Below are positions 10,307 through 32,365 of a DNA stretch of 33,827 bases, piece after piece. Position 1 is the first letter of the stretch. The number at the start of each line of letters is the position of its first letter. Both the position numbers and the translations under genes were made by a program. The stretch is from a virus (Duplodnaviria > Caudoviricetes). The notes beneath the pieces are model-generated. The model was given only the letters and a program-made list of their open reading frames with translations. It did not search any database and had not been told where the DNA came from. Location: the IMG/VR virus record IMGVR_UViG_3300021364_000086, positions 1-33,827 of that record; one strand, written 5' to 3'.

Positions 10307-13300
10307 CTATTTATCTAGCAATTTTTTCACCATTTCTTTAAGCTCTGCAATCTCGGCTGCTTGTGCTTCAATTTTTGCATCTTGTTCTTTGATTGCTTCA
10401 ATAAACAACGGAGCAAGTTTTTCGTACTTAACTGTGATATAGTCTTCACCTGATTTACTCTTATACTCTCTTGCTTCGCTATCCCATTCTTGGTCAAAAG
10501 GTGCTTTAGCAATTGCTTGTGGCAACACTGCTTCAACTTCCTGTGCAATAACACCAGCATCATTGATTTGGTTTGTAGGATGGAAACCTAAATCATTGAC
10601 TTCTGATTTCCAATCAAAATTTACACCGTTTAATGATTTAACTTTATCCAATGCATTTTCAATCGGAACAATGTTTTCTTTGAGTCGTCTATCAGATGAA
10701 TAAGCTGTGACTTCGCCTACTGCATTAACATTACGTCCCATTGTTGCGTCATTGTTTGTCAAGTTCCAGTAAGCAGGCCATTGACTGTTTACCTGTGCCC
10801 AACTAGTTGCATCGTCTGGACCACGTAGAATATAGAACAAGTCGCTGTTGGTATGTAGCATGGCAACATTGTGATCAGTATCACGTAAATATAATGTCGG
10901 TGATGTATTTCTGATATAAATGTTTTGACTTGCTGTAGCAGTGCTTCGTATAAAGCCTGTGCTGTCAATACCGTCGAGTGTATCAGCATTATCAGCTGTG
11001 ACACCAGTAATACCACTACCGTCACCTGTAAATGCATTGGCTGTGATATTGCCTGTGATGTTAATACTACCTGCGCCGCTGATTGTTCCAGAGAAGCTGT
11101 CGTTTGCATCACTGCGTAAGAAACTACCGCTATCTATTCCGTCCAACGTATCTGCATCTAGTCCACTTGCAGCCCCATCGTTGCCTGCATGCCAAACTGT
11201 GTAATTTGTTCCGCCAACATTGTAAATTAGACCATTTACACCACTGTTGACATCAAGATATTCATCAGTTCGGTCATTGTAGATACGCATTGCTCCGCCA
11301 TTAACATACTGAATATAACCTCTGCGAGTTCCTGCTTGATAGAAACTAATGTATGGACTTTGTGTCGAACCTTGTGTTTGCAAACGTAGTTGCTCACTGC
11401 TATTGCGATTTATTGTAAGCAATCCTGTTGTAGTATCGTTTTCATCACTGCGTAAGAAACTTGCGCTATCAATGCTGTCTAGGGTAGCAGCATCAACACT
11501 AGTTAATCCACTACCATTACCTGTAAATGTACTTGTACCAATATTGATATTTCCGAAGTTGCTGCTAATGCTACCTGCGTCAAGTGCACCAGTTCCAGTT
11601 AGGTTGCTGTATGTTCCGTCGATACGTGCATTTGGAACAGTTCCATCGCCTAAGTTGCTTGCATTTAGGCTTGTAAGTCCGCTACCATTGCCGTTGATAG
11701 TACCGTTGACATATACATCTTTTGCAATACCAACACCGCCATCTACAATTAGAGCACCGTTTGTTGATGCTGTAGATTGTGTTGTATTATCAATATTAAC
11801 AACTGTTGAGCTGTTAAAGTTAATGCTTACACCATTGTCTGCACCAATTGTATCCAATGCAATGCTACCAACATTAGTAATGTTATTATCGTTAAAGCTG
11901 GTTGCACCTAAACTTACACTACCTGTTGCTGTAAGATTATCAGCACCAATATTAATTGAACCAAATCCGCTAGTGATACTACCAGCATCAAGTGCGCCTG
12001 TGCCTGTAATATCTAATTGGTGTTGTACAACACTGCTTGAACTAATTCTAGCATCAGGAACAGTACCGCTTGTAAGTTGATCAGCATTTAGTGCTGTTAG
12101 GTTAGTACCTACACCACTAAACCCAGTTGTACCACTAAATGATAATGTAGTAGTGTTTACACTTAGATTTACACCTGGAACACTCAAACTGTTGTTTGAT
12201 GCATTACCAATTTGCATAAAGTTGCTTGTTGTGTTTGCAGCAGTTTCAATACCTTTACCAATAAGAATGTTGTTGCTACCGGATGTAAGTGTTCTACCTG
12301 AACTTGCACCAAGCACTGTGTTATCACTACCTGTCACAATCTCAAGAGCTTGATAACCTACAGCAGTGTTATCATCACCAGCTGTGCTGTTTGCCATTGT
12401 GTCTGCACCAACACTGGTGTTGTTATTACCTGCATTAGTTCTTTGTTCTTGACTGTCTGAACCAATAGCAGTGTTATTGTTAGCACTTGTAAGTGCGCTC
12501 AGTGCCACATAACCTACAGCAGTGTTTTTATCACCGCTTAGAGCACCATGTATACTGCCGCTACCAATACCAGTGTTAAACTGAGCACCGGTAGTAATAC
12601 TATCACCATCTCCAAAGATCAAGTTAGTTGATTCGGCTAATGCACCTTGACCAATTCTAAATCCATTTACAGTAATATCACTGGTAAATGTTTTACCTGC
12701 TTGGCTAGTTGGCAATCTTGCATCATTTACAGTTCCAGTTGCAAGGTTGCTTGCATTTATGTTAGTAATGCCACTACCGTCACCTGTGTATACTCCACCG
12801 ACGTGTAAGTTTTTGGCAATACCAACACCGCCATCTACTATCATAGCACCAGTTGTTGTACTAGTTGCTTGTGTAGTATTGTCAACGTTTACTTGTGTAG
12901 AACTTGCAAAGTTCATGCTAGTTCCATTATCTCCACTGATAGTATCTAGTGCAATACTTCCAACATTTGTAATGTTATTGTCGCCAAAACTTGTAGCACC
13001 TAGTGTAATAGTCCCTGTTGCTGTAAGATTACTTGATCCAATGTTGATATTACCAAAGTTGCTGGTAATGCTACCGCCATCTAGTGCGCCAACATTTTGC
13101 AAACTACTGTTTATAACATTAGCACCAAGTGTGTTTGCATCCAAAACACTTGCGTTGTTGATGCGATATTCTTTGCCACTTATAATGTTTACATGTTCAC
13201 TAAAGTCCCAACTATCGTTTGCATTTGACCATGTAATTGTATGATCAGTTGTGCCTTTTAATGTAATACCACCACCATCTGCTGTAGTATCAGTTGGAGT

Positions 13301-16300
13301 AGCAACAGTTCCTAATTCAATGTTTTTATCATCAATTTGAAGTGTAGTTGAATTAAGCGTAGTGGTTGTTCCGTTAACAGTTAAATCGCCTGTAATTGTT
13401 AAATCACCTGCAATACCTGTATTACCAGTAGCATATGCAATAGTGAATTTAGTAAGTCCATCTCCAAAACCTAGATCTCCAGTTGCACCAATTTGCATAC
13501 GCTGTGTACCGGCTGTTAAGAAATCAAGCTCATCATTATCAGCACCAGCACTAGTCTCCGGTCTAATGAGTGTATCTTGATCAACGTCTTTAACACCACC
13601 TAGTGAACCCCAGTTTGAACCATCGTAGCCTTCAAAAGTACTATCGCTTGTGTTATAACGAATTTGACCTTGAGCAGCAGCTACATATATTCCTGATTCG
13701 CCTGGACGTTGCGCACTTGTACCAACAGGAACTTTAATACCTGTTGTATCAGTGAATTTAGTGTATCCAGTAAATGTAGTGACACCTTCAGTATCAATGC
13801 GCATACGTTCTGTGATTGTTTGTAATCCTTCGCCTGTGGTTCCTTCTTCTCCTGTTTCTACAATAAAGTCACCACCAGTAGCATTACCAGTACCAATACC
13901 AGGACGCAATGTAAGTGATCCACCACCCACGTCTGTTCCAATACCACCTTCACCTTTTATCAATGCTGGCAAAGGACTTGTTCCAAATTCGCCACCACCA
14001 ATTACAACGTTTTGGTTTTTAATTACAATAGTATTTTCTTTTGATATTGTTCCAATCTGTGTCACAGCTGGATCAGCGTTTACGTTGTTGTTTGTTCTGA
14101 TTGTGAACGAAGTAGCATTTTCAGTTGCACCAATTACTGGCCATTGTCCGTCAAGATTTGTGACGCCACTACTTGCAACAATCACAGTATCACCTACTCT
14201 TATACCCAATGTTAACGGTGTGTTTGTAAATGTAATGGTTGTGCCTGTTAAAACACTACCTGTTAAATCTTCACTTAAAAATACTTCTTCTTCGGTAATA
14301 CCAGTGACAGTTGTGTTAGCTGGAATACTACCACTACCAGCCACAGTCATGCCAAATGCAATTTGTGAAGTATCACTAAACAACAATACCTTTTCACCAT
14401 TTGCACTTGCAGCAGATGTTGATACATTTACTTCTGATAAATTAACTACTACATCCTGCGTGTTAGTTGCTTCATATGTATCAACACTTGTGCTAATATT
14501 TCTGCTATCACTGTTTTTACCTATTTTTACATTTTCAGCATCGCCACCAATTTCAAGTGTTGTGACGTTATCGTTATAAACTTGACCTGTAGCTGTACTA
14601 CTTGAACTTAATCTAGCCGAACCAACGTCCAAACCTTCTGCAAGATCAAGTGCTGTACCCCATTCTGGTGTGACACCATTTGATTTTAGGAATGTATTCT
14701 GTCTACCAATATTAAGTGTATTCAAACTTGCAGCTGATTGTGCGTAAATAATATCACCAATTGCATAAGTTGAAATATTAGTACCACCTCTGTTTACAGG
14801 AACCGGGCTAGTTAAGTTAGCAGGGTTTAGGAAGTATGCACTATCAAGTCCGTCCAGCGTACCCGCATCTACAATACCATCTTTGATGAAAACTTCACCA
14901 CTACCGTTTGAATTAACGTCAAACTGCGTCTGTAAGAATCTACTTGTTCCAAGTGTTGAGAAGTTTCCAAGTGGATCGTAATCTGCATTAGAAATACCAA
15001 TATTTACTGGATCACCGTAGAATTCAGCATTTGAACTCGATCCTGTAAGTGTAATTGGGTTATCTGTTGTGTTTGCTTTTTTAATACTTTGAACAACAGT
15101 GTCATATCTGCTATCACCAAATAAAACTGTATCGCTGTTTGGTACACCACTAGCACCAAGTCTACTTGGAGAAATTGTGCCTGAAATAATGTTTTCAGCG
15201 TCAATGTTGGTAGCAGCAAGTGTATTCCAGTTATTTTTAATTCTACTAGAAGTGTTAACCACTGTGCTTACTCTAACATTGCTTGGCGTAACTCTTGCTG
15301 CACCTACACCTTTTGTACCAATGTCTTTTCTGTTTGTCACAAGTCCATTAATACTGCTTAGAGCATCTGAACGCAGTGTGTGTAATGTAAATGAGTTTGT
15401 TGTGACTGAGCCTACAAAGAATCTAGCACCATCTACAATTTCTTTACCGTCGATGTTAGGAAGTGCATTAGTGGTTGATCCATCTGTAAGAGTGTTGATT
15501 CTAATTGCATCACCTGTAGTCAAACCGTGATTTTGAACAATCACACTGTCATCTGTTAAGTTGATTACATGTCTTGTAAAGTTATGATTGTTGTTTAATG
15601 GTGTTGTTAAGAATTCAATTTGATTTAACAAACTGTAATCTTCGTATACTTCAATAGTATCGTCATCGATTTTCTTAGCATAATACACCTGACCATTCAA
15701 AAGTCCACCGATAGCAACATTACCCAATGTATCGTATGTCAGTGGATCACCGTCAAGTAATCTGTGATCTGTGACAGTAATTCTATCTGTTGAATAGTCA
15801 ACACTACCTCCAGAACCTGTTGTACCTGCTAAAAAGTTTAAACTTACTGTATTGTCTAATCCAATATCAAATGCTGTATTTACAGCATCAACATCTTCAA
15901 CAAAGTCAATACTCGATGTCGAAGCAACAAATAATTCACCACCTAAGATATTAACATAAGCACGTTTTTCAATAGCAGAAACTTCGATTTCGAAGCTGCT
16001 ACCTGTGCCACCTATATCACTGGCATTTGCACTTAGTGTATCACCAACTGCATATCCTGTTCCACCTCTGCGAAGGTCAACATCACTTACTGCACCTGCG
16101 GTGACTGTGATATCTGCTCTTGCGCCTGTACCAGAACCACTTACTGTTGTTAATGCAACATCTTCATAAATTTTATTACCAGAAGTTGGTGTATATCCAC
16201 TACCTCCGGTAATATCTCCGTTGTCTACATTTACAGCAACACCAAATCTTGTTTCGGTGACTGCACCTTGCGCACCACCGTCAGCACTTGTCACAATACT

Positions 16301-19300
16301 GAAAACATTGCCTGTTCTACTTATAGTTGATACATCAATACCTATATTTGCAATTGTAAAACTTGTGCTTGTTGGAATACTTATAACTTCACCATTAACA
16401 TTGAAAGTTTCATCTTCGGTACATTCTACTCTAACTTGGTTTCCAACATTTAATCCGTGTGCAGAAGATGTCACAATAGTTTGTACATTGCTGCTTCTTG
16501 ATACACTGCTCAACTCTACAATAGTGAAGTTATAATCTTCACTAGGATCAAGATTCAAATACTGACTAGTATTGGAACTTTTTAGGAAGAAGTTGTCAAT
16601 AATAGCACTAGATGCACCTTTACTTGTTGGGTAAACTCCTGAATCAACACCGTCAACAAACAAGTTTAAGTTGTTCGTTGTATCCCATGGATCACCAACA
16701 CTATCGTCTGTTTCGTCCCATGCGCCGTCAAGTGTGGCAACAAGAATGTTTGTACTGGTGCTGAAAGTACCTTTTGCATAACCAGTGGCGCCAGTGACAC
16801 CAGGCTGCGTAATAACTGCACCGTCTGCTGCGGTAATTGTACCACTTAAATTTAATTCTACTTGCTCGTAGTTTTCTGTAGCAATGTCACCCGCAGACAA
16901 GTCAGCAGCAGGAATATCATCAACTTGTAAAAGTCTTGACAAATATCCGTTTGTGTTTGTGTTTGTAAATTGACGTGTAGCTGGAATAAGTTCGCCGTTT
17001 AACTGACCGTTTGTGTTCAACTGAACAATAGCACCTGGAACAGCCGCAGTACTCACAGTTTTGTCAACAAAGCCACCTAGTCTGTTTGAAATAAAACTTC
17101 TAACTGCTAACTGTGTTGAAAGTCTGGCATTACTTGGACCGCCAATTTCGTCATCACCTAAGTTTACATCAGTTGAAATTTCTTCAATAGCAACGTTTGA
17201 CAAGCTCAGTCTCAAAGCATCAAGTTCGTCCACCTGAACTTTGTTTCTAAATGTAATATTACCTGTTCTGTTGAATGCTGTAATAAAGTCACCAACTTTA
17301 AAGTCACCTAGTTCGTTTGTACCTGATGAGTACACACGTCCTGGAAGTTCTTCATACTGTTCAAATTCAGATCTTGTATTACCACCGTTTTGTGGTAGAG
17401 CGTTATAGTCAGTACCAGAACCTGCATATTCCCATGTGTGTGCAGATGAGTTAACAATACTCGGTCGGTGGAACCATACTTGTTTCTCAGGTAAATTTGC
17501 AGTATTACTCACACTACTACTACCATCTGTAGCAGTAATACTAAATGTTGCTGTACCTAGTCCTGTTTTTGTAGAAACTTCGTTAATTGCAATTGTTGAG
17601 TTTGGACTTGCAGAATGGTCTTGTGTAATTGTACTAGTTGCATCAAATTGGATTCTCAAAACACTAGAACCAACAGCTACTTCTTCAATACTAACAATAA
17701 GTCTACGTTCGTTTGGTTCCCAACTATGAACAAATGCACTGTTGTTATTTGCACCTGTTGTACCTTGAATAGATCTACCTGGTACAAAATGATAACTTTC
17801 AGCACCAGATTCGAGAATCAATGTTTGATAGGTTTGGTGTGAACTTAAAATTTCTTCTACATAGAATTCAATGATGTCTGTTCTAAAAATATGTGTTCCG
17901 CTATTTGAAACATTTTGGAACAATGCAACAGGAAATTCTAAACTGTCGTCAAATGTCAAACTAAATGTGTTTTCATCTAATACGTTAGCATAGTATGTTT
18001 GTTCATCGTTTAATCCACCGATAGACGCATTTCCATTGTTATCGTAAATTAATTTTTCACCGTTTGAAAACCCGTGTCCGGTCACAGTAAATACACCAGT
18101 TGTTAGATCAACATCTGCTGCTGCATCTATATTTGTAGTAGTCGGTGTTGGAATATAACTATTTGTTATGTCGCCTTCACTTGTAGATTCTGCAGGTGCA
18201 GGAATCTCTTCTGGAGATCTAATTGCTTCACTTACAATGTTAAATCTACCTTGGACAAAATCTTCAATATCTGTTGTAATACCAGGTTTGCCTGTAATTT
18301 CTGCATTTGTCAATGTTGCAGCTTGCTGGATTGCTGCAATAGTTTGTAGTTCTTGCCCACTAATACTGCTTCTAGTTGAGTCAGCAAGGTTGGCTGTAAA
18401 ATAACTTAAACCAGCACTACGTGAATATCTATTACCAGTATCCCAAGTATCTTTAGCTACAGCTTCAAGAATTAGTTTTGTATCTCGTAAACATTTAGAT
18501 TGATCGTACTCGAAGTTATACCATTTTGCTGCATCAATACTTTCGTTAATATAACGTGTGACTCTTTGCGCAATGTTATCTTGACCACGTGCATTTAATC
18601 TAATAAAGTCATCTTTTAGTGCTTGAGATACACCGAGAGCATCTAAGTCAGGTTCAATTAAGTTAATGTCAATTGTACCATCTTTGTCTAAATAACTTAC
18701 AATTTCACCAACTCTTGCTTCAACAAAATCTTCTTCTGTGACAGTTGCTGGTGTTCCGCTTGTATCTTGTGATAATACGTTTCCTGTTGAAACTGCTACC
18801 GGTGTTTCTGTGACAACTTGTCCTACGACAGTTTTTAATCTATTGTATGCTGCAATAGTCTCGTCTTTTTGTCCGTTTGCAAGTTGTGATTGTGTACCAA
18901 CAAAATATTGTATTGCTGCATCTATAGTTTGTAAGTTGCCGCCTGTTGATATATCGTAAACAAGTGCATCAATAATTAACCCAATATCATTTTCACATTT
19001 TGCTTGATTGTAGGCAAACGAAGGTGAGAATGGATTGGTTGCTGCTGCAACTTGACTTGCAATCCATGCAGTGATTTCTTTTTTGATAAATTCTTTGTTT
19101 GCAATAAGTTGATTTCTTGCATTAAGTGCATTTGTGTCAATAGCAGTTGGTAAAATTCTTGCATCAACCAAATCATCGCCAGCAACACTTGCACTACTAC
19201 CTGCTTCTAATACTTCTACAATTTCGTCCCATAGTGCATCAGATCTAGATTCAAATGTTGAATCTTGTATAATTTGTGCTGTAAATGTTTTGGCATTTTG

Positions 19301-21010
19301 GAAAGCGTCAATGTGTTGATCTTTTTGATTTGCATAAGTTGATGCGTCAAATCTACCATTGAAATATGTTAACACAGACGAAATTGTTCTAGCATTAGAA
19401 TTTAATGCAGCATCATATCTAATTGCATCGACTAATAATTTAGTATCTCTTTGACATTTTGCTTCATCATAGCTAAATCCTGCATAGATACTAGGAGAGC
19501 CAGCCGAATTGCTAATTTGTAAATTAATCCAATCAACAACATCTTGAGCAATAGCATCTCTCTTGTTATCGATCAAAAGTTTTGCAAATTTATAGCCAGG
19601 TTCTCTAAATCTTAAAACAAATTCTTCAACAGGTGCATCACGATTAATACCTACAATAGTAATAGTTTGTTTACCTTGGCTAGCACCAGTTGACACAGCA
19701 TGAGCACGGTCAAACTCGAACGCTTTTGGAGAATAACCAGATGAACGCAGAGCATACAAACCAAAGTTAGTAGCAGAGTTGGTAATAGAACAATAACCAC
19801 CAGATTGTGTGTAAACACCGTTTAGTAGGAAGATTTGGAAACAGCTAACGATCTGTGCATAAGCATCGTTAAGTAGACGCCAACCTGTGCCACCAAACGA
19901 AAGCATGGTATATGCGTTAGCAACCATTGATTTACCTTGTTCAGGTACAGCACCTATTACTGGATTTTCAGCCTCAATGTTGTATCGAGGAACGTTTGGA
20001 GATTCAACCAATGCACCATCAATCTTAGCACCACTACCGCCTAAGAACGAAATAATCGAACAGTTCTGTGTATATGGAGAAGTGACAATTGTAGGCTTTG
20101 TGTTTGGCAGGTTAGTATACTGATCGCGGTCTGTGACATCAGTAGCATCTGGATCGTCAAAAACTGTTGCATAATCCCAAGTAATCAAAGGAACTTGGTT
20201 TTCATCAACACCATCGCGGAATGTAAATTCACCAAAATAACATGCGTTTCTTACACGGAACATATCCAAGTTAGCATTTGCCGGACGTACAATACATCCA
20301 CGCAAGCCGTCGCCTTTGATAACAACGTTGTCTGGAATAATAACAGGGTTGTCTTCTGTGTAGTCTCCAACCGCAACTTTTACGTTTACTCTCACACCAT
20401 TTATTGTTCCATCAGTATTGTATACTAATCCAGAAGCAATTTGACAGGCTCTCTTAACAGTTTTAACTGGAGCGCTCTGTCCATCGTTGTCGTCGTCACC
20501 TTGTTCTGCAGAAACATAAACAACATTACCACCAAACACGTCAGCATCAGCAAACTCTAATTGTCCATTACCATCTGTTTTTAAAATTTGTCCAACAGTA
20601 CCATTGACTAGAGGCAGAGTCAAATTATAACTGTTTGGCAAGTTGTAAGGAGCTTGAATACTAATACCGTCTTCACCTGATGCAATACTTTCACGCCAAG
20701 TGATTTTACCAAAGTCTTCCATATCAAGGTCATCTTTGATGTTAAACCCTGCATTGGTTAATGTCATCTTTTCATCGCCATTGACGGTCATGCTAATTTC
20801 AGCACTAGCACTATCGCCTAGGTCGTCTACTCTAACTTCGGTATTGTTTTCAAAAATTCTTTTTGTAATATCTTGTACGGTGTTATCATCTCTAAGTAGA
20901 TAAACTTTACCGTCTGCTGTGTTGATGGCTAATTCGCCTGATTCAAGTTGTGATACACTAGGTTGATTACCAGCGACCGCACTTCGCTTGTGTCTAATTG
21001 TTGTTGCCAT
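10307..21010 (-). CDS. Giant tail-fibre-like protein (3567 aa) with 3 phycobiliprotein-like domains and a C-terminal peptidase S74 intramolecular chaperone
   Basis: N-terminal I.HKRS.....P....L..GELAINTADGK fibre-attachment motif; beta-helix-like segment (YVS...GDD.NDG...PVKTVKRA); G/T/S-rich fibre repeats; LDADTLDG.DS..FLRSD repeats; C-terminal SDRRLKENI.PI.NALDKV..L.GV.F.WK...GVIAQEVEAVLP...V.YEKL.PLFIEAIKEQ. SD AGGAGG upstream. Confidence 0.85.
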   Translation of the reverse strand: MATTIRHKRSAVAGNQPSVSQLESGELAINTADGKVYLLRDDNTVQDITKRIFENNTEVRVDDLGDSASAEISMTVNGDEKMTLTNAGFNIKDDLDMEDFGKITWRESIASGEDGISIQAPYNLPNSYNLTLPLVNGTVGQILKTDGNGQLEFADADVFGGNVVYVSAEQGDDDNDGQSAPVKTVKRACQIASGLVYNTDGTINGVRVNVKVAVGDYTEDNPVIIPDNVVIKGDGLRGCIVRPANANLDMFRVRNACYFGEFTFRDGVDENQVPLITWDYATVFDDPDATDVTDRDQYTNLPNTKPTIVTSPYTQNCSIISFLGGSGAKIDGALVESPNVPRYNIEAENPVIGAVPEQGKSMVANAYTMLSFGGTGWRLLNDAYAQIVSCFQIFLLNGVYTQSGGYCSITNSATNFGLYALRSSGYSPKAFEFDRAHAVSTGASQGKQTITIVGINRDAPVEEFVLRFREPGYKFAKLLIDNKRDAIAQDVVDWINLQISNSAGSPSIYAGFSYDEAKCQRDTKLLVDAIRYDAALNSNARTISSVLTYFNGRFDASTYANQKDQHIDAFQNAKTFTAQIIQDSTFESRSDALWDEIVEVLEAGSSASVAGDDLVDARILPTAIDTNALNARNQLIANKEFIKKEITAWIASQVAAATNPFSPSFAYNQAKCENDIGLIIDALVYDISTGGNLQTIDAAIQYFVGTQSQLANGQKDETIAAYNRLKTVVGQVVTETPVAVSTGNVLSQDTSGTPATVTEEDFVEARVGEIVSYLDKDGTIDINLIEPDLDALGVSQALKDDFIRLNARGQDNIAQRVTRYINESIDAAKWYNFEYDQSKCLRDTKLILEAVAKDTWDTGNRYSRSAGLSYFTANLADSTRSSISGQELQTIAAIQQAATLTNAEITGKPGITTDIEDFVQGRFNIVSEAIRSPEEIPAPAESTSEGDITNSYIPTPTTTNIDAAADVDLTTGVFTVTGHGFSNGEKLIYDNNGNASIGGLNDEQTYYANVLDENTFSLTFDDSLEFPVALFQNVSNSGTHIFRTDIIEFYVEEILSSHQTYQTLILESGAESYHFVPGRSIQGTTGANNNSAFVHSWEPNERRLIVSIEEVAVGSSVLRIQFDATSTITQDHSASPNSTIAINEVSTKTGLGTATFSITATDGSSSVSNTANLPEKQVWFHRPSIVNSSAHTWEYAGSGTDYNALPQNGGNTRSEFEQYEELPGRVYSSGTNELGDFKVGDFITAFNRTGNITFRNKVQVDELDALRLSLSNVAIEEISTDVNLGDDEIGGPSNARLSTQLAVRSFISNRLGGFVDKTVSTAAVPGAIVQLNTNGQLNGELIPATRQFTNTNTNGYLSRLLQVDDIPAADLSAGDIATENYEQVELNLSGTITAADGAVITQPGVTGATGYAKGTFSTSTNILVATLDGAWDETDDSVGDPWDTTNNLNLFVDGVDSGVYPTSKGASSAIIDNFFLKSSNTSQYLNLDPSEDYNFTIVELSSVSRSSNVQTIVTSSAHGLNVGNQVRVECTEDETFNVNGEVISIPTSTSFTIANIGIDVSTISRTGNVFSIVTSADGGAQGAVTETRFGVAVNVDNGDITGGSGYTPTSGNKIYEDVALTTVSGSGTGARADITVTAGAVSDVDLRRGGTGYAVGDTLSANASDIGGTGSSFEIEVSAIEKRAYVNILGGELFVASTSSIDFVEDVDAVNTAFDIGLDNTVSLNFLAGTTGSGGSVDYSTDRITVTDHRLLDGDPLTYDTLGNVAIGGLLNGQVYYAKKIDDDTIEVYEDYSLLNQIEFLTTPLNNNHNFTRHVINLTDDSVIVQNHGLTTGDAIRINTLTDGSTTNALPNIDGKEIVDGARFFVGSVTTNSFTLHTLRSDALSSINGLVTNRKDIGTKGVGAARVTPSNVRVSTVVNTSSRIKNNWNTLAATNIDAENIISGTISPSRLGASGVPNSDTVLFGDSRYDTVVQSIKKANTTDNPITLTGSSSNAEFYGDPVNIGISNADYDPLGNFSTLGTSRFLQTQFDVNSNGSGEVFIKDGIVDAGTLDGLDSAYFLNPANLTSPVPVNRGGTNISTYAIGDIIYAQSAASLNTLNIGRQNTFLKSNGVTPEWGTALDLAEGLDVGSARLSSSSTATGQVYNDNVTTLEIGGDAENVKIGKNSDSRNISTSVDTYEATNTQDVVVNLSEVNVSTSAASANGEKVLLFSDTSQIAFGMTVAGSGSIPANTTVTGITEEEVFLSEDLTGSVLTGTTITFTNTPLTLGIRVGDTVIVASSGVTNLDGQWPVIGATENATSFTIRTNNNVNADPAVTQIGTISKENTIVIKNQNVVIGGGEFGTSPLPALIKGEGGIGTDVGGGSLTLRPGIGTGNATGGDFIVETGEEGTTGEGLQTITERMRIDTEGVTTFTGYTKFTDTTGIKVPVGTSAQRPGESGIYVAAAQGQIRYNTSDSTFEGYDGSNWGSLGGVKDVDQDTLIRPETSAGADNDELDFLTAGTQRMQIGATGDLGFGDGLTKFTIAYATGNTGIAGDLTITGDLTVNGTTTTLNSTTLQIDDKNIELGTVATPTDTTADGGGITLKGTTDHTITWSNANDSWDFSEHVNIISGKEYRINNASVLDANTLGANVINSSLQNVGALDGGSITSNFGNINIGSSNLTATGTITLGATSFGDNNITNVGSIALDTISGDNGTSMNFASSTQVNVDNTTQATSTTTGAMIVDGGVGIAKNLHVGGVYTGDGSGITNINASNLATGTVNDARLPTSQAGKTFTSDITVNGFRIGQGALAESTNLIFGDGDSITTGAQFNTGIGSGSIHGALSGDKNTAVGYVALSALTSANNNTAIGSDSQEQRTNAGNNNTSVGADTMANSTAGDDNTAVGYQALEIVTGSDNTVLGASSGRTLTSGSNNILIGKGIETAANTTSNFMQIGNASNNSLSVPGVNLSVNTTTLSFSGTTGFSGVGTNLTALNADQLTSGTVPDARISSSSVVQHQLDITGTGALDAGSITSGFGSINIGADNLTATGSVSLGATSFNDNNITNVGSIALDTIGADNGVSINFNSSTVVNIDNTTQSTASTNGALIVDGGVGIAKDVYVNGTINGNGSGLTSLNASNLGDGTVPNARIDGTYSNLTGTGALDAGSISSNFGNINIGTSTFTGNGSGLTSVDAATLDSIDSASFLRSDENDTTTGLLTINRNSSEQLRLQTQGSTQSPYISFYQAGTRRGYIQYVNGGAMRIYNDRTDEYLDVNSGVNGLIYNVGGTNYTVWHAGNDGAASGLDADTLDGIDSGSFLRSDANDSFSGTISGAGSINITGNITANAFTGDGSGITGVTADNADTLDGIDSTGFIRSTATASQNIYIRNTSPTLYLRDTDHNVAMLHTNSDLFYILRGPDDATSWAQVNSQWPAYWNLTNNDATMGRNVNAVGEVTAYSSDRRLKENIVPIENALDKVKSLNGVNFDWKSEVNDLGFHPTNQINDAGVIAQEVEAVLPQAIAKAPFDQEWDSEAREYKSKSGEDYITVKYEKLAPLFIEAIKEQDAKIEAQAAEIAELKEMVKKLLDK
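18210..19600 (-). repeat. Three phycobiliprotein-like helical domains within the 3567-aa fibre
   Basis: YDEAKCQRDTKLLVDA (Cys codon 19454-19456), YNQAKCENDIGLIIDA (18995-18997) and YDQSKCLRDTKLILEA (18491-18493). The repeats are seen directly; the fold assignment is inferred. Confidence 0.65.
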
Positions 21011-21116: not shown

Positions 21117-24100
21117 TTAAAAGCTACCACCATCAATTGTGTCAGTCCAGACTGGTGTTGCATCACTACCACTTGTGACAGTAAGTATTTGGAACGAATC
21201 GCTTGCATCGCTAGTGCCTGCTGCATCAGTGACTTGAACTGGATTTTGTGCATTACCGTACAAAATACCGTCTGTAGTAAATGTGCTTGTACCTGTACCA
21301 CCGTATTGCACTTCAAGATCAGTCACAAGTGTTAATGTGCCTGCATCCAAGTTTGTGACAATAATTCTGTTGTTGATAGCATCCAGCATTTCTGTACTAT
21401 CGTCTGCAAAAATACTACCTCTAAACCCTGCTGCATCAAGTATACCGGTCACAAACAAGTCTTGATCAATTTGAACATTTGTCGTAAATGTACTTGTGTT
21501 TTCGCTTAGTCTTAGTTTTTCAACACTTGCACCTGCAATTCTAGTTGTAAATACCATGTCAAAATCTTCGTCACCTGTGGTGACATCAGTGCTTACAACA
21601 TCAATTCTACCAGCAGTCACATAATTGTTGTTTGTGATTTCTTGTTCAAATGGTAAACCTATACCTGCACCAATTACAGCATTACCAGTTTGGTTATGGT
21701 GTGCAAGTATAATTGGATCAACAACATTATCTGTTGCACTATCTGATTCATTGCTGATAATTTTGAAGCTATCAGTTGTTCTAATAGTATTAGCCGGAAT
21801 AAAGATTTCATCAGTTGCTTTTTCTGTAAGTTGTAGAACATCGCTTTCGTTGCCGCTGATGTAGCCTCTAACGTGCAAGTTTCTTGCTATGCCAACGCCA
21901 CCTGATACAATCACTGCACCAGTATCATATGATGTGCTCTCAGTAGTGTTATCAAACTCTGTAAGGATTGTTCCTTTAATACTTAGTGTAGTTGGATCAA
22001 GTGTAATTCTCTGTACACCGTTGGTAAAGAATTCAAGTGTATCTTCATCCGATGCTGGTGATGTTTCAGGACGTATAAATGTATCTTGATCAACGTCTTT
22101 AACACCACCTAGTGAGCCCCAGTTAGCACCGTCATATCCTTCAAAGGTTTCGTCTGTTGTGTTAAAACGTATTTGACCAACTGCGGCTGTACTATCTGCT
22201 CCACGTTGTGCTGTTGTACCTACCGGAATCTGTAGTGTACCAACACTGTTAAATATTACAATCTCACTGTTTACTTGGAACACACTGTCTGTTGATACAG
22301 CACCCATTGTAATAGTGGTTGCATCACCAAATGCATTTACATTTTGTACATTTGTATTCAACAAGTTAAACGTGTCAAGAACGTTTGTTGTAATATCACC
22401 ACCGTCAACATTTAGATCTAAATCAATATCAACATTGTGTTTAATAGTTGTAGTACCAATACCTACTGCACCAATTGTTAACTGTGTTGTTCCACCTGCA
22501 AAGTTTAAATTGTTTGCATTGTCGTTTAACAAGTTAAATGTTGTACTTGTAGTTGTAATGTCTCCGCCGTCAACTGCAAGATCAGCATCGATTTCAACAT
22601 CACCTAATACAGTGCCGCCTGTGAGTTTGTTTAGATATCTATTCTCAACATAGTTTACAACTGCAACTTGTGTTGGAACAGTGTTAATATCACTTGCACC
22701 TGTACTTGCTCTCAAGTCTGAACTGTTGCTAACTTCTTTGAGTTCAACACCAACTGGAATACCAAAACGTTTGAACGGACCAATACTTGCAATACCGCTT
22801 AGACTAATTTCTTCAGCATTCAATGTAATAGCACCAGTAAGTGCGTTAACATTAAAGAAATTACCTACTCTAAAATTACCAATTTGGTCAACTGTACCAC
22901 CGGCAAATACTTTACCGTTGTCTGTTTCTGTGATTTCGTTTTCTGCTATAGCACTACCACCAAAGAACGGTAATGCGTTATAAGTCACACCTGCACCAAC
23001 ATATTCAAACGCATGTCCTGATGTCGAAACAGTCGATACGTTTTGCATACTACCAAGTGTGCCTTCTGCAACATATGTGACTTGAGGGAATAGATCTAGT
23101 TCTGCAACGCCTCCGTATTGTAGGTTAAGTAATCTAATTGCTTCATCTTCGATTGCTTTTGCATCAGCCAATACTAGTTCACGTTTTGCATTTGCACTTG
23201 TTTCAGCATTAGATTCATAATCATGATCAATTTCGTTTGGCAATACTGGGTATATACCTTGCGAAATTACTTCTGCAATTTTAGTCACGTTGTTTTCAAT
23301 TGAAAGTGTTGCAGTTGCAGTACCACCAGTAGCATTGTAAGTTTGAGTCAAACTATTGTCATCACTTACTACAACCTTTTGGTTTTGTCCAATCTTGCTC
23401 ATTATACTTGCAAGATGTTTGTATGCAAATTCTGTGACACCTTCTTGATCAGCATTGCTACCTGCTGTAGTAATACCTGCAAGAATTGTTCCTGTGTAAT
23501 ATGCTTCGCCTGCTCTGCGTGTTTGCTTATTACCGCCATACATCATATCATAAAGTGCAGCATCAATGATGTACTTTGTATCTCTTTCACACTTTGCAAC
23601 GTTGTAGCTAAATCCAATAATATTATCTCTGATAAAGTCTATAACACCTTGTTGAATTGTTGTATTTGCATTTGAAAGTGCATCTAGTGCAACGTTTGTA
23701 GAAACTGTGACCCAACTTGTGTCAGGTTCTTGATCAGTTGGTGTGCTCAACAAGTTGCCTGCTGTAATAGCATCGATTGTGATATTAAACAAGTTATTAG
23801 AAGTTGTAGCTTCATTGCTTGTACCGTATGGTCCGACTAAAGATTGTGTTTCTGTGTTGCCTGCACTAGGTGTGACTGCAATACCTTGAATTACTTGAGC
23901 AGCAACGGTTTTAACTCTTGTAAGAGCATCTGCTGTTTCAGTTTCTTGTCCGTATACTTGGCTATCACCGTCTAAGAAGTAGCTTCTTGCACTTGCCAGT
24001 GAACTCACATTGCCTGTGTATAATAAATCATGTGTTGTTGATTCAACAAGATATCCAACGTCTCTACGACACTTGACTTGATCATAACTAAATCCGTTTT

Positions 24101-27100
24101 GGTTTGTGTTTATGTAGTCAATAACACTTTGTACCAAGTCAGCACTACTGCTATCTCCAGTTGCTTGTATTAAATCTCTACTGTCTATTCTTGCAGTAGG
24201 AGCTCCTGTTTCATCAATTGCAGTTTCGGTTGGCAATATTTCTAAAGTATTTGCTCTTACAACATCTTCTACAATAGTAGAAAGCACATTAACCTGTGTT
24301 GCCTCAGTGGCGCTTGCATTACCAGCACTTGTATTTTGTCCAGGATAAGTTCCAACAACAATCTGTTGTAAAATTACACCTAGTTGATTTAGTGCATCTG
24401 CTGTACCTTCTTTTTGACTGTATGGCAAAACACTTGCATTATTTTCAAAATATGCTCTTGCATTTTGAATACTTGCAAGGTTGGTGCTATACATAATATC
24501 GTGACTTACTGCATCAATAATATATCCTGTGTCTCTTTCGCACTTAGTTTGATCAAAACTTAGACTTGGAAGATTTGCTGTAATCCAACTAATTAATTCA
24601 CTGATAATAAATGTTCTGTTGTTTTGCAGTTGTAATTGTGCATTGTTTCTGTTTGTATTTCCACTAGGATTAGGGAAACTTAATGCATCTGCATTACCAG
24701 TTCCGTTTTGAATAATATCAATGATTTCATCAAACAGTGCATTACAAGTTGCGACACTTGTAGCATCAGATGCAATTAAGTTAGCAACTTCACCCTTTAA
24801 ATGTGTAATTGCTGCAATTGTTTGAGTAATTTGATCGCTGATTACATATGCACTAACTGCTCTGTAATATGATAGTCCTGCTGTGATACTGTTGTAATTT
24901 GAACCTGTGATCAAGTCATTGCAAACAGCGTCTAGAATAAGTTGTGTGTCTCTAGCACACTTAGCACTATCGTATACAAAGTATTGATCGTTTATATATG
25001 CAATTGCTTCTTCTTGCAAGAATGCTTTGTTTTCTTGTAGCTGTCTGGCTGCATCAATTAGTTCTTGACTTGCTGGCACAGGTGCAGGATATGTTTGTCC
25101 TTCACTTGGCAGTGTTTGATATTCAAGCAATGTTAATACAGTGTCAAACCCATCTGTGACTCTAGTTGTAGCAGTTGTATCATCAGTGGTGTATGTAAGT
25201 GCTAAACGTTTTGCTTCTCTAATAGCAAGTATAGTTGCAGGTAATTGATCATCTTTAACTGTAGATGCATTTGCTCTAATGTATGCTTGTCCTGCTACAA
25301 TAGCATTATGATTTGTGTTTAATCTTGCATCTCTTACCACAGCATCGATAATTAATCCTGTGTCACGTTTACATTTTTCTCTATCGTATGTAAAGTTTGG
25401 ATAATTTGCAAGGATCCAAGTTGTTGACGCCGCAGCAAAGTTATCTTGTTGACCAAATATAGAACTAAATGCTGTTTGTAAGCTGGCATCTGCCCAGTCT
25501 GTGACTGCTCTGTTGGCAGTAGGCAAGTTATCAAGATTACCGTCATCTAACACATCAATAATAATTTGTATCAAGCTAGTTGCTGCGCCGACTTCTGTTG
25601 CACTTGCAGGATCACCTGTTGTATCTTGTGTTTCGTTATTTCCAGGACTTTTTGTCAGTGCTGACTCTAAAAGAATACCTGTGACTACACCTTGCAAATG
25701 TGTGTATGCTTGAATTGTAGCTGTTGTTTCTGCTGTACTGCCTAATTGACTTGAAGTTCCTACAAAATAGCTACTTGCTGTTTGTCTTGTAGCACTATTA
25801 CCCTCATACAAAATGTCATATATTAATGCATCAACAATGTATCCAACATCTCTTTCGCACTTGTCAGCATCGTATTCAAGTGTTGGGTTTTGTTGGTTAA
25901 CATATGCCCTTACTTCCTTTTTAATGAAAGTTCTGTTTGCAATAAGTTGATCTCTTGCATTAACTCTATTTGTAATTACACCAGTGGGCAATGGATATGT
26001 AATTGCATCTGCATTTGTAATATTACCAATTGTAATTTCTTTAATAACTGTATCTTGAATAGTTGTTTTAGCATTTTTCCAACTATTAACATCAGTTTGG
26101 ATACCTGCTGCTGCCCATGTATATGTTGGTTCAATAAGTGAAGGCATTCCGCTTACACTATTTGCTGTAATTACATCAGCAATAATTCTTACCAAACTTT
26201 CTGCATCAGCAACTTCATCAGAACTACCTAAGTTTCCAGTAGTAGTTTGTCCTGGGTAGTTTTCAATAACAATTTGACTTACAATGTTGTATGCCAAGTT
26301 ATTGTATGCGGCAGCAGTTATAGCTCTTTGATCTGCTGGTAGTTGACTTGTTGTACCTTCAAAGTATGCATCAGCTGCTCTGCGTGTTGCAAAGTTGCCG
26401 CCGTATTGAATATCAAAACTAATTGCATCAACAATGTATTTTGTATCTCTTGCACATTTAAGAGTATCGTATACAAAAGTAGGATAGTTAGCTGAAATCC
26501 AAGAATTTACTTCGCTTGCAATAAAATCTCTATTTGCTTGTAATAGTATTCTTGAATTTGTTGCGCTGCTGTTTGTTCCTGGATCAGTCCAAGTAATAGT
26601 ATCTGCTGCAACATCTGTGCTGACTTGTCCATTCTCTAAAATGTCTAAAATCTCATCAAATGCTGCATCTGATCTTGCTTCAGCAGTTGCATTTGACATG
26701 TAAGTGCCAGTTGCAAGTGTTTTCATGTATTGGTAAGATGCTTTTGTTTGATCAAACTGAGCGCTTAACACATATGCACTGTTTGCACGTTGATATGATA
26801 AGCCTGTGGTGACTGCATTATAGTTAGTGCCAAGTGCAACATCAAATGCAACACTGTCTACAATGTATCCAACATCTCTTCTACAAGTATCAGAATTATA
26901 AGCTCTGCCTGTAATGATATCAATAACTTCATCCCATGCTTCTGTGACTCTTGTTGTTGCTGTAGAATCAGCAGCCACATCAGACAATGCTAGTGTTAAT
27001 CCCTTAAGATAGTTGTAAGCAGCCACTGTCACAGTGGTTTGTGATCCTGTGGTTGACGAAGTTGTGTTGTAAACATCAGCACTTGCTCTTGCATATGCAA

Positions 27101-28979
27101 GTCCTGCTGTAATACTGTTATAGTTTGTTCCAAGCACAGTGTCGTATGCAACTGCTTCAGTAATAAGTCTTACGTCTCGTTCACACTTTTCTTGGTCATA
27201 TGATAAGTTTGTAAATTGTTCTGCAATATATTTTATTGTTTCTTCTACAATAAAATCTTTGTTTGCAACAATTGCATCCTTAGCAGCAACAGCACCTGGA
27301 CTACTTGCATTTGTATCATCGTATACAATATCCGGTGCAGCACTACTATCTTCATTTGCAATGAAGTTTGTAATAATTGCTGTTTTTTCAATTACGTCAT
27401 ATCTGTATTGTTCGTTTGCAGGATCACTGTCTGGAATACGTGCAAGTATTTCATCTCTAGTTGCTTCAATACCAAATATAGTAGGCTGTAGCTGTTGGTT
27501 TAAAACTTTAGCACTATTTGCTCTAAGATAACTTCTACCTGCTGAAATACTTTGGTAGTTGGTTCCTAGTGCAACATCGCCCATGATTGCATCAATTATT
27601 CTAGCAACGTCTCTTCTACAAACTGTTTCATCGTAAATAAATGGCTGCTGAGTAATGTCATTACCGGTCACATAGTAAACTGTGCTATCGCCTTCAAACT
27701 TAATAACACTACCTGTTTGCGGAATGTCTCTCAAACTGTTTACTACAACACTGCGATTTTTAATCAAGTTAGCTGTTGCAGTTGCAATCGAACTGAATCC
27801 ACCTCCTGTGAGTGTGACACCTGGTACGCTTCTATATCCACTACCAGGATCGTCAACTGTAATACTTGTGACTTCGCCACGTAATAAATCAACACTGGCT
27901 GTACCTTGAGCAGTAGTTCCTCCAGGTTCCTCAGGAGGCTCAAATGTCACAGTAGGTACTCCTGTATATCCAGCACCTGTGCTGTTTACAGTCACACTAC
28001 CTACAGTTGATGTGTATGTTTGAGACGGTCTTGCTGTGGTATAAACTTTATCAAATAATCCGTCAGCAATAATACCAAATGTTCCAAAGTCACTAACCGA
28101 GTTTGAAATACTGAGATAGCCACCTTTGGTAGCCATAAAACCGATACGAGTAAAAACAGTAAAGCAGCTAACAATCTGTGTATAGCCAAAGTTTGTAATA
28201 TGGAAACCAATGCCACCTTGTGCAATCTGTGTAAATGCGTCAGCAACAAAGCTGAATACCAACGAATCTTGATTGTAATCATTACCATCAACTAACATTC
28301 CATTGCCGCCGCCGTTTGTGTTAACACGTTTTGCAAGCGGTACGTTTGGATCGTTTTCAATTGGTCTTGCACCTGCTGGTACACCTGGAATTTGTTCTGT
28401 GACAAAAGGAGTAAATTCTGTTCCGTCGTTTAACCAAGGACCGTTCATGTTTGTACAGTTTTGTACATAAGGTGATACTGTCACTAGTGCGCCTTCTTTA
28501 ATTCTAGCACACCAACCTGGATCACGCAATGCCCTAAATGTAAGTTGGAATAGATAACATGCATTATCCATTAAGAAGATATCATTTGTAGGATTGTTTG
28601 GAAAAACTTGACAGTTTCTTAAACTATCACCTCTAACAGTCATACGTTCTTTTAGACTGATTGGATTGTCTTCGTAATAATCACCTGGTGCAAGTTGAAT
28701 TGTTGCACCTGCTGGTGCTGCTTCAACAGCTGACTTAATTGTTCTTTTTGCCCTTGATGCGCCTGCACCTTTACCGTCATTTTCGTCATTGCCTTCTAAA
28801 GAAACATAGTATATTAAATCGTTAGTTGGACCTGAGCTCGATCCAGTAACTTTCAAATCACCTGAAACTTTCACCGTTCCAGTGGACGGTGTAAGTTCAA
28901 TTGTGCCGTCATTGTTAATGATCAACTCGTTGTTGTCAATTTTTCTCTGATATATACTCTGTTTCTTTACGTATTCCAT
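21117..28979 (-). CDS. Giant virion fibre/structural protein (2620 aa) with 10 phycobiliprotein-like domains; paralogue of the 3567-aa protein
   Basis: Shares with the 3567-aa protein the beta-helix-like N-terminal region (YVS..G.D.NDG, GDY.EDNP, SPY.QNC, YxQIVSCF), the H.(W/F)EY.G.G..YNALP..GG block and the GQIR.NT...TFEGYDG.NWGSLGGVKDVDQDT block. It ends in IDGGSF. Confidence 0.8.
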   Translation of the reverse strand: MEYVKKQSIYQRKIDNNELIINNDGTIELTPSTGTVKVSGDLKVTGSSSGPTNDLIYYVSLEGNDENDGKGAGASRAKRTIKSAVEAAPAGATIQLAPGDYYEDNPISLKERMTVRGDSLRNCQVFPNNPTNDIFLMDNACYLFQLTFRALRDPGWCARIKEGALVTVSPYVQNCTNMNGPWLNDGTEFTPFVTEQIPGVPAGARPIENDPNVPLAKRVNTNGGGNGMLVDGNDYNQDSLVFSFVADAFTQIAQGGIGFHITNFGYTQIVSCFTVFTRIGFMATKGGYLSISNSVSDFGTFGIIADGLFDKVYTTARPSQTYTSTVGSVTVNSTGAGYTGVPTVTFEPPEEPGGTTAQGTASVDLLRGEVTSITVDDPGSGYRSVPGVTLTGGGFSSIATATANLIKNRSVVVNSLRDIPQTGSVIKFEGDSTVYYVTGNDITQQPFIYDETVCRRDVARIIDAIMGDVALGTNYQSISAGRSYLRANSAKVLNQQLQPTIFGIEATRDEILARIPDSDPANEQYRYDVIEKTAIITNFIANEDSSAAPDIVYDDTNASSPGAVAAKDAIVANKDFIVEETIKYIAEQFTNLSYDQEKCERDVRLITEAVAYDTVLGTNYNSITAGLAYARASADVYNTTSSTTGSQTTVTVAAYNYLKGLTLALSDVAADSTATTRVTEAWDEVIDIITGRAYNSDTCRRDVGYIVDSVAFDVALGTNYNAVTTGLSYQRANSAYVLSAQFDQTKASYQYMKTLATGTYMSNATAEARSDAAFDEILDILENGQVSTDVAADTITWTDPGTNSSATNSRILLQANRDFIASEVNSWISANYPTFVYDTLKCARDTKYIVDAISFDIQYGGNFATRRAADAYFEGTTSQLPADQRAITAAAYNNLAYNIVSQIVIENYPGQTTTGNLGSSDEVADAESLVRIIADVITANSVSGMPSLIEPTYTWAAAGIQTDVNSWKNAKTTIQDTVIKEITIGNITNADAITYPLPTGVITNRVNARDQLIANRTFIKKEVRAYVNQQNPTLEYDADKCERDVGYIVDALIYDILYEGNSATRQTASSYFVGTSSQLGSTAETTATIQAYTHLQGVVTGILLESALTKSPGNNETQDTTGDPASATEVGAATSLIQIIIDVLDDGNLDNLPTANRAVTDWADASLQTAFSSIFGQQDNFAAASTTWILANYPNFTYDREKCKRDTGLIIDAVVRDARLNTNHNAIVAGQAYIRANASTVKDDQLPATILAIREAKRLALTYTTDDTTATTRVTDGFDTVLTLLEYQTLPSEGQTYPAPVPASQELIDAARQLQENKAFLQEEAIAYINDQYFVYDSAKCARDTQLILDAVCNDLITGSNYNSITAGLSYYRAVSAYVISDQITQTIAAITHLKGEVANLIASDATSVATCNALFDEIIDIIQNGTGNADALSFPNPSGNTNRNNAQLQLQNNRTFIISELISWITANLPSLSFDQTKCERDTGYIIDAVSHDIMYSTNLASIQNARAYFENNASVLPYSQKEGTADALNQLGVILQQIVVGTYPGQNTSAGNASATEATQVNVLSTIVEDVVRANTLEILPTETAIDETGAPTARIDSRDLIQATGDSSSADLVQSVIDYINTNQNGFSYDQVKCRRDVGYLVESTTHDLLYTGNVSSLASARSYFLDGDSQVYGQETETADALTRVKTVAAQVIQGIAVTPSAGNTETQSLVGPYGTSNEATTSNNLFNITIDAITAGNLLSTPTDQEPDTSWVTVSTNVALDALSNANTTIQQGVIDFIRDNIIGFSYNVAKCERDTKYIIDAALYDMMYGGNKQTRRAGEAYYTGTILAGITTAGSNADQEGVTEFAYKHLASIMSKIGQNQKVVVSDDNSLTQTYNATGGTATATLSIENNVTKIAEVISQGIYPVLPNEIDHDYESNAETSANAKRELVLADAKAIEDEAIRLLNLQYGGVAELDLFPQVTYVAEGTLGSMQNVSTVSTSGHAFEYVGAGVTYNALPFFGGSAIAENEITETDNGKVFAGGTVDQIGNFRVGNFFNVNALTGAITLNAEEISLSGIASIGPFKRFGIPVGVELKEVSNSSDLRASTGASDINTVPTQVAVVNYVENRYLNKLTGGTVLGDVEIDADLAVDGGDITTTSTTFNLLNDNANNLNFAGGTTQLTIGAVGIGTTTIKHNVDIDLDLNVDGGDITTNVLDTFNLLNTNVQNVNAFGDATTITMGAVSTDSVFQVNSEIVIFNSVGTLQIPVGTTAQRGADSTAAVGQIRFNTTDETFEGYDGANWGSLGGVKDVDQDTFIRPETSPASDEDTLEFFTNGVQRITLDPTTLSIKGTILTEFDNTTESTSYDTGAVIVSGGVGIARNLHVRGYISGNESDVLQLTEKATDEIFIPANTIRTTDSFKIISNESDSATDNVVDPIILAHHNQTGNAVIGAGIGLPFEQEITNNNYVTAGRIDVVSTDVTTGDEDFDMVFTTRIAGASVEKLRLSENTSTFTTNVQIDQDLFVTGILDAAGFRGSIFADDSTEMLDAINNRIIVTNLDAGTLTLVTDLEVQYGGTGTSTFTTDGILYGNAQNPVQVTDAAGTSDASDSFQILTVTSGSDATPVWTDTIDGGSF
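23120..27640 (-). repeat. Array of ten CxRD-containing phycobiliprotein-like helical domains
   Basis: Consensus (F)xYDxxKCxRDxgyivDA..xD...gxN..s..A..xY. Cys codons at 27618, 27183, 26883, 26454, 25857, 25371, 24957, 24540, 24069 and 23589 (lowest coordinate of each codon). Confidence 0.7.
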
Positions 28980-31192: not shown

Positions 31193-32365
31193 TTAGCTGA
31201 AGCTTAGGTTTGCAGTTGTGACTGCAACTTTGCTTAGGTAGTCAGCTGCATTACCAAGAGATGAAGCTGTGTTGTTTAGCTCAACATATCCATAACGAGT
31301 CATAAATGATACAACTGGTTCGAATGTGTCTGGGTCAAGTACAACACCGCTTGACATCAATGGGATGTATGGGCAGTAGAACGCTGCTGCGTCTGATTCT
31401 GATGTACCTTTGTAGCCTACAAGAACATCGTCTGATGTTGCATATGTGTTTACATATACTTTCATTGCGTTGTTCAATGTACCAACTAGTTTTGTGTTAG
31501 TTGGTGCTTCAAATGTTCCTTCAGTTGTTCTTGCGAACGCTGAAGTTGTTGCTGATTGCAAGATTGTCAATACAGTTGGTGAAACAACAGCCCAGTTGCC
31601 TGCGCCTCTGCGTGTACGCTGAGCAATTAGGTTTGACACTTTGTTAATTTGAACTGCAAGTGCTGCATGTTCGTCACCAACAAATGTTGCTGTACCTGAT
31701 ACGCCTGCTTGGTTGTATGTTTCAGCTGCTGTGCCTGCCAATGATGTTAGGCTTGCAATTACTTCTTGATCGATCTCAGCAGTAATCTCTTGAGCAAGTG
31801 CTGCCATGATTTCTGCTTCCACGTCAATACCGTGTTGCGACTGAGCGTCCTGTGCTGCCTCAAATGTCCAACGTGCTGATAGCTTACGTGATTTAGCTTC
31901 AACAGTTTGTTTCAAGATCTGGATGCTTAGTCTGTTGCCAGCTGCACCTTCAAGTGCTGATGTTGTTGCTGCTTTGTCGTCAGCTGCACCTGAATAACCT
32001 TCAGCGATTTTGAATGGGCTTAGTGCCTCATCGCCTGCGGTTGTGTCTGTTCCACTTGTTGAGTTGAATGCATCTGCATAACGTACTCTTAGTGTGTGGA
32101 TTTGACCAACTGGACCAGTCATTGGCTGAACGCCAACCAACTCGTTAGCAATAACGGTTGGCATAACACGTCTGATCACTGGAAGGATCACACGGTTTAA
32201 TGTTGCGACATTACCAGCAGAAGTAGCACCAGCTGTTGCGGTCTCCATCAAATGCTTACGAGTATTTTCAAGAGTTGTTTCCATAACAGCTTTTTTGTTG
32301 CCTGCAAGGCCTTCAGTCAAGGCACCTTTTGTCTCCTGCCAGCGACTTTCTAATAGTTCTGACAT
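31193..32365 (-). CDS. gp23: Major capsid protein (T4 gp23-like)
   Basis: IRRVMP..IA.ELVGVQPMTGPVGQI..LR.RY, VEAKSRKL.A.WT.E.AQD....HGID.E.E, AAFYCPYIPL and DP.TFEP...FMTRYG motifs. Confidence 0.97.
   Translation of the reverse strand: MSELLESRWQETKGALTEGLAGNKKAVMETTLENTRKHLMETATAGATSAGNVATLNRVILPVIRRVMPTVIANELVGVQPMTGPVGQIHTLRVRYADAFNSTSGTDTTAGDEALSPFKIAEGYSGAADDKAATTSALEGAAGNRLSIQILKQTVEAKSRKLSARWTFEAAQDAQSQHGIDVEAEIMAALAQEITAEIDQEVIASLTSLAGTAAETYNQAGVSGTATFVGDEHAALAVQINKVSNLIAQRTRRGAGNWAVVSPTVLTILQSATTSAFARTTEGTFEAPTNTKLVGTLNNAMKVYVNTYATSDDVLVGYKGTSESDAAAFYCPYIPLMSSGVVLDPDTFEPVVSFMTRYGYVELNNTASSLGNAADYLSKVAVTTANLSFS

Follow-up and report, generated by a model that had tools for sequence, protein, structure and literature searches.

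The light-harvesting phycobiliproteins (PF00502) and the bilin biosynthesis-associated globins (BBAGs) are the described systems closest to the one reported here. BBAG-1 and BBAG-3 are globins with a CXRD motif and autocatalytic bilin loading (PMC10151467). BBAG-2 is biliverdin-specific and has no CXRD, a motif that marks the BBAG-1/BBAG-3 and phycobiliprotein clade (PMC10151467). Phages can carry a heme oxygenase/bilin reductase cassette, described as "still enigmatic" where the host has no phycobilisome (PMC11480375). We analyzed the 33,827-nt (33.8-kb) virus record IMGVR_UViG_3300021364_000086 (Caudoviricetes), hereafter the window, in which open reading frame (ORF) A (21117..28979, minus strand) encodes a 2620-residue tail-fiber-type virion protein with ten tandem domains. 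Structural modeling predicts the phycobiliprotein globin fold for these virion-fiber domains. We consider it probable that they covalently bind a linear tetrapyrrole at the Cys of a CxRD motif, likely phycoerythrobilin made by the phage; that light would then modulate attachment is a more tentative proposal.

All ten CxRD motifs named in a preliminary description of the window were found, in the order given there, with Cys residues 100–199 residues apart, as it had stated. The span it had given for the array, 23120..27640, was corrected by repeat-profile matching to 23244–27782 on the minus strand, as for every repeat below. From the N terminus these are repeat 1 (Cys454, CRRD; 27336..27782), repeat 2 (Cys599, CERD; 26901..27335), repeat 3 (Cys699, CRRD; 26613..26912), repeat 4 (Cys842, CARD; 26145..26603), repeat 5 (Cys1041, CERD; 25524..26009), repeat 6 (Cys1203, CKRD; 25101..25523), repeat 7 (Cys1341, CARD; 24687..25106), repeat 8 (Cys1480, CERD; 24234..24689), repeat 9 (Cys1637, CRRD; 23742..24233), and repeat 10 (Cys1797, CERD; 23244..23741). 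Motif and profile matches define repeats 1–6 and 8–10, and repeat 5 also matches PF00502 (E 0.046); repeat 7 is the modeled domain and has two extra Cys (1353, 1412). The count of ten holds for the motifs, but repeats 1 and 3, the latter short, are incomplete, as both lack, in the alignment, the helix pair that stands in front of the Cys helix in the other repeats. Three more repeats in the adjacent ORF B, recognized by motif, alignment, and profile, had been overlooked (Cys519, CQRD; Cys672, CEND; Cys840, CLRD; 18203..19612). ORF A contains 17 Cys (10 in CxRD motifs, 2 further in repeat 7, and 5 N-terminal), and none of 10,000 shuffles of the protein yielded more than two C.RD motifs. The 13 repeats of the two ORFs share 17–45% pairwise identity, are alignable over about 140 residues, and keep Cys, Asp, Asp+14, Asn+20, and Tyr+30 invariant where aligned, which marks them as genuine repeats. 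Between repeats 4 and 5, a short extra segment (residues 946–986; 26022..26144) with a weak repeat-profile match (6.1 bits, E 6e-4) may provide a truncated repeat with its missing helices. Orphan N-terminal helix pairs alternate with domains missing them here (26022–26144) and also in L311, L411, and L585, which suggests nested or swapped domains.

The proposed phycobiliprotein-type fold agrees with the predicted structure, which was computed for repeat 7 and extended to the other repeats through the alignment. Compared with known structures, the model returned phycobiliproteins at ranks 1–8, ahead of heme globins by 2–5 Z units. The Cys84-x-Arg86-Asp87 register, aligned to the alpha and beta Cys, is kept in 10/10 ORF A repeats and 2/3 ORF B repeats (the other reads CEND). 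Phycocyanin and phycoerythrin alpha subunits are closest by sequence, and the ApcE bilin domain and allophycocyanin by structure. The bilin-binding globin domain of photocobilin (8j2w, 8j2y) fits the modeled repeat with a higher root-mean-square deviation (5.8–6.1 Å), and a Pfam scan found no B12-binding domain in the phage fiber. The N-terminal X/Y hairpin, reported as not evident in the preliminary description, is indeed absent: the repeat match begins at PF00502 position 29 and alpha residue 40. Its absence suggests monomeric domains strung along the fiber rather than alpha-beta trimers. Whereas phycobiliproteins are alpha-beta heterodimers, the phage domains stand in tandem within a 2620-residue fiber, lack the hairpin, score below the Pfam cut-off, and add an invariant Asp+14 and Asn+20. 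The hairpin, the score, and the tandem setting place the repeats outside the light-harvesting family, although they may work like a phycobiliprotein or a BBAG.

The repeat profile matches 1464 clusters at 50% identity, with 1 to 36 matched stretches per protein and 5–36 in each of the best 150. All 241 matched records among annotated phages are cyanophages or one marine virus. The domain occurs in 14 of the 15 cyanomyoviruses examined, six of which were picked because the profile had already matched them; the exception is P-SSM2. A scan of low sensitivity brought up no cellular relative. The giant structural proteins of T4-like cyanophages (PHROG 5342, 4527, 701) carry the same domain family in fiber or baseplate-wedge proteins, among them S-PM2 p091 and YP_195253, P-HM2 gp7, and S-SZBM1_208, all annotated merely as tail or structural proteins. 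S-SZBM1_208 has seven domain matches and is represented by 71 peptides in purified virions (PMC9146016). A nitroreductase-family protein (PF00881, E 4e-6; G028, L404:5535-6659, minus strand), whose gene neighbors look like radical-SAM enzymes, contains one inserted CxRD domain, and a second single-domain protein stands alone at L403:5425-6216; the domain is thus not confined to fibers.

Within this family, Cys, Arg, and Asp are conserved at 94, 94, and 98%, respectively (1613 domains from 150 listed proteins, found with a profile biased towards these residues). The Cys is absent from 169 of 2242 distinct domains, many of which are orthologous positions and hence not independent, and Phe, Tyr, or Trp takes its place in 109 of the 169. 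Arg, Asp, Tyr+30, and Thr+46 decay in the Cys-less domains, and Asp+14 holds. The CxRD Cys has no conserved partner Cys, the largest Cys–Cys pair count among the 2242 domains being 6. Cyanophage domains often carry a second Cys ahead of the last helix, which profile alignment equates with beta Cys153, together with an upstream Asp equated with beta Asp39, presumably the ligand of the second-site (Cys153/155) chromophore. Of 36 cyanophage domains spanning both positions, 26 have both residues, 5 neither, 5 the Asp only, and 0 the Cys only; in a wider set, the Asp is present in 26/28 regex-picked second-Cys domains versus 234/2189 others. The window repeats, in contrast, lack the second site at the beta-155 register, and repeat 7 has the Asp and, seven residues past that register, a Cys. 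Cys-beta155 is served by T-type lyases (PMC2327270), and cpeT is frequent among cyanomyoviruses (PMC10452541). The link between cpeT and the domain among phages is not one-to-one. Phage CpeT reportedly did not load host subunits in vitro (Gasper 2017). The cpeT gene of S-PM2 is located some 1.4 kb upstream of the domain-bearing 3779-residue gene (L311:3848-17163), that of S-RSM4 about 1 kb away from the equivalent gene; the S-PM2 record places tRNAs within the 3779-residue coding sequence, apparently an error of annotation.

These patterns bear on whether phages took over the fold as a helical spacer or an adhesion module that binds no ligand, with the motif retained for folding or disulfides. 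Repeated spacers are common in fibers, the sequence signal is concentrated at the motif, and the phages Mosig and P-SSM2 have bilin enzymes without the domain. P-SSM4 retains three domains with neither cysteine, encoded in a 7312-codon frame whose protein is homologous to the Cys-bearing one of Syn9 (L435); these domains are a natural negative control. A spacer is nevertheless improbable, given a single Cys per domain without a conserved partner, loss of that Cys accompanied by aromatic filling and decay of Arg, Asp, Tyr, and Thr, and the covariation of the second Cys/Asp pair in cyanophage domains.

As genes to look for alongside the array, the preliminary description had named heme oxygenase, ferredoxin-dependent bilin reductase, and lyases. 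The 34-kb window has no bilin gene, heme oxygenase and reductase included, but near-complete relatives encode both of these enzymes. Among 41 domain-bearing records, the longer contigs from the profile-matched sets, the two enzymes occur in the same 8, including all 5 that are at least 90% complete. Their genes adjoin each other and sit among hsp20- and clpS-like genes (neighbors named from sequence), away from the fiber genes. Four of the five near-complete relatives have capsids 83–88% identical to that of the window and the PcyX-type Asp where PcyA has Glu, a distinction drawn in PMC13446030; the Asp predicts phycoerythrobilin as the reductase product. In a reverse search, 13 reductase-bearing contigs were chosen by size from 80: all six longer than 100 kb have the domain, and all seven shorter ones do not. 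Four cultured relatives have neither domain nor reductase, and psbA/psbD was found in 0/13 uncultured records. The close relatives yielded no lyase of the S or T type, so attachment there would be lyase-independent or host-assisted. In S-PM2 and Syn9 the domains are present and the reductase absent; their hosts make bilins. A complete 271-kb phage of another lineage (G015; L400, L401, L215), with a capsid 41% identical, shows 14 domain matches; besides heme oxygenase it encodes a CpeT-family protein and a reductase whose residue at the PcyA position is Glu, and it lacks psbA. In this phage, a Cys-less single-domain gene comes after the gene for a 13-domain protein.

The likeness to BBAG-1/3, as judged from the near-complete domain-bearing genomes, would lie in CXRD globins encoded by non-cyanobacterial genomes, with heme oxygenase and bilin reductase alongside and a lyase unneeded. 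BBAGs, compared here by their description, are stand-alone proteins of cells, encoded next to pre-PcyA, V4R, and FeS genes, whereas the phage domains are multi-copy virion modules far from the PcyX-type cassette. No BBAG-type cluster of pre-PcyA, V4R, and FeS proteins lies around the relatives' cassette, where the reductase is PcyX-like. The pocket might instead serve another ligand or partner, such as a host surface molecule acting as receptor, or heme or biliverdin scavenged as an iron source. BBAG-2 proteins bind biliverdin (PMC10151467), a part for phage hemO/pcyX in supplying iron has been discussed (PMC11480375), and the nitroreductase-family insertion implies non-virion uses of the domain. 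The phage domains, however, have the CXRD missing from BBAG-2, phycobiliproteins outscore heme globins, and the domain is accompanied by a reductase, not by oxygenase alone, all of which leaves this alternative with a slim probability.

In the mechanism that we favor, a heme oxygenase and a PcyX-type reductase, both encoded by the phage, would make phycoerythrobilin, and apo-domains would be loaded with it in the infected cell, autocatalytically as in BBAG-1/3. The loaded domains, monomeric and strung along the fiber, would then be assembled into fibers to give a pigmented virion, and light would modulate attachment to the host through the pigmented fiber. We judge it quite likely that loading is covalent and takes place in the infected cell ahead of assembly, with no phage lyase of the S or T type involved, and that the virion is pigmented; that light-modulated attachment is the purpose we put forward tentatively. 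P-HM1 and P-HM2 fail to adsorb in darkness, S-PM2 adsorption requires light and not host photosynthesis, and dim red light is without effect (PMC6628666, 10.1101/167650); light-only adsorption has been ascribed to light-sensitive receptors or tail fibers (PMC6628666). Cys-bearing domains are present in S-PM2, P-HM1, and P-HM2 and absent from the dark-adsorbing P-SSM2 and P-SSP7. S-PM2 adsorption is also said to be lower in red than in blue-to-yellow light (Jia 2010).

Nearly as likely as light-modulated attachment, and like it doubtful, is a passive protective role, in which the bilin would coat the virion as a photoprotectant or antioxidant, or act as an energy sink, and so prolong virion survival in lit water, with no signaling. 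The range of copy number suits a bulk function, BBAG holoproteins are photoinert with low fluorescence yield (PMC10151467), and timing to host photosynthesis is less obvious in relatives without photosystem genes. The domains are located, however, in fiber and baseplate-wedge proteins rather than capsid proteins, and a few hundred visible-light chromophores would probably protect little DNA.

Several observations weigh against a bilin-binding, light-modulated fiber, beginning with the photoinert BBAG holoproteins. The PF00502 gathering cut-off (22.2 bits) is unreached: two of the 13 repeats match, both below it, the best at 19.1 bits. When eight columns around the motif are masked, the profile match to alpha subunits falls to 0.34, and the conservation figures are inflated because the profiles were seeded from motif-bearing repeats. 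The enzymes are missing from 33 of the 41 records, all less than 90% complete, including a 98-kb contig 94% identical to the window. Because enzyme co-occurrence is clade-wide, the domain-bearing genomes are not independent. CpeT and CpeS appear in 1/13 and 0/5 uncultured records, respectively. Unfiltered whole-genome searches found no domain in Pelagibacter phage Mosig (heme oxygenase and reductase) or P-SSM2 (reductase), which means that these enzymes also serve other purposes. Phycoerythrobilin lacks a C15=C16 double bond that could isomerize. P-SSM2 adsorption is still light-enhanced (PMC6628666), and with the domain in 14/15 cyanomyoviruses the light link reduces to one myovirus versus three, two of them one species. 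In Mosig (L310), the heme oxygenase and reductase genes immediately precede neck genes.

The window covers a structural module comprising protease, scaffold, major capsid, the two giant fiber-type genes, neck, tail-sheath stabilizer, and sheath, the protease and the sheath fragment being assigned by reading sequence and position. The major capsid protein (31193..32365, minus strand; PF07068, E 4e-102) is 72% identical to that of Vibrio phage 2.275.O and 67% to those of PA5oct and GAP32, on which basis we assign the phage to uncultured GAP32/PA5oct-like jumbo myoviruses and not to T4-like cyanophages. ORF A matches PHROG 5342 (tail fiber, E 5e-107), 4527 (short tail fiber, E 5e-92), and 701 (virion structural protein, E 9e-31). 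These tail-fiber matches, its place downstream of the capsid genes, and its Peptidase_S74-ending paralogue support a tail-fiber or virion role. That paralogue, ORF B (3567 residues; 10307..21010, minus strand; PHROG 5342, E 3e-174), has a C-terminal intramolecular chaperone domain (PF13884 Peptidase_S74, E 6e-18, residues 3439–3499). The N-terminal part of ORF A (residues 50–440; 27660..28832, minus strand) is 29% identical to ORF B residues 162–435, matches PF07602 (23.8 bits; cut-off 20.3) and, under the cut-off, PF12708, and weakly resembles the start of 3vst and 5mqp. The related opening segments of both ORFs thus resemble beta-helix proteins at their start. A 1496-residue protein (4613–9103, minus strand) comprises about a dozen tandem units of ~100 residues, with a DxD-type stretch in the last, and matches no PHROG and, below E 0.1, no Pfam family. 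Its gene is preceded by a glycosyltransferase-like gene (9100–9675; PHROG 12406, E 1e-6), and the pair is possibly a virion glycosylation module.

Together, the predicted fold and the heme oxygenase and bilin reductase of near-complete relatives support the phycobiliprotein-like interpretation of the preliminary description. Our literature search, which covered few subscription papers and no supplements, found no description of virion phycobiliprotein-like domains. A broader proposal, on which we would place only a modest chance, is that large aquatic phages, cyanomyoviruses included, have pigmented virions with bilin arrays on fiber or baseplate that gate adsorption; the domains, not host antennae, would then be the substrates of hemO, pcyX, pebS, and pcyA, and of CpeT through the beta-155-type second Cys. 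The domain is a phage-encoded candidate acceptor for the phage bilin cassette, and light-only cyanophage adsorption becomes testable, as the cultured S-PM2, P-HM1, and P-HM2 carry the domains, which could also yield small monomeric bilin-binding tags. The finding is one of probable bilin-binding globins in a virion setting, and would be new in category should the virion turn out to be pigmented and gated by light. A virion biliprotein, if true, would represent a novel type of viral structural protein, and with the 1464 clusters the bilin-binding globins would gain a large branch.
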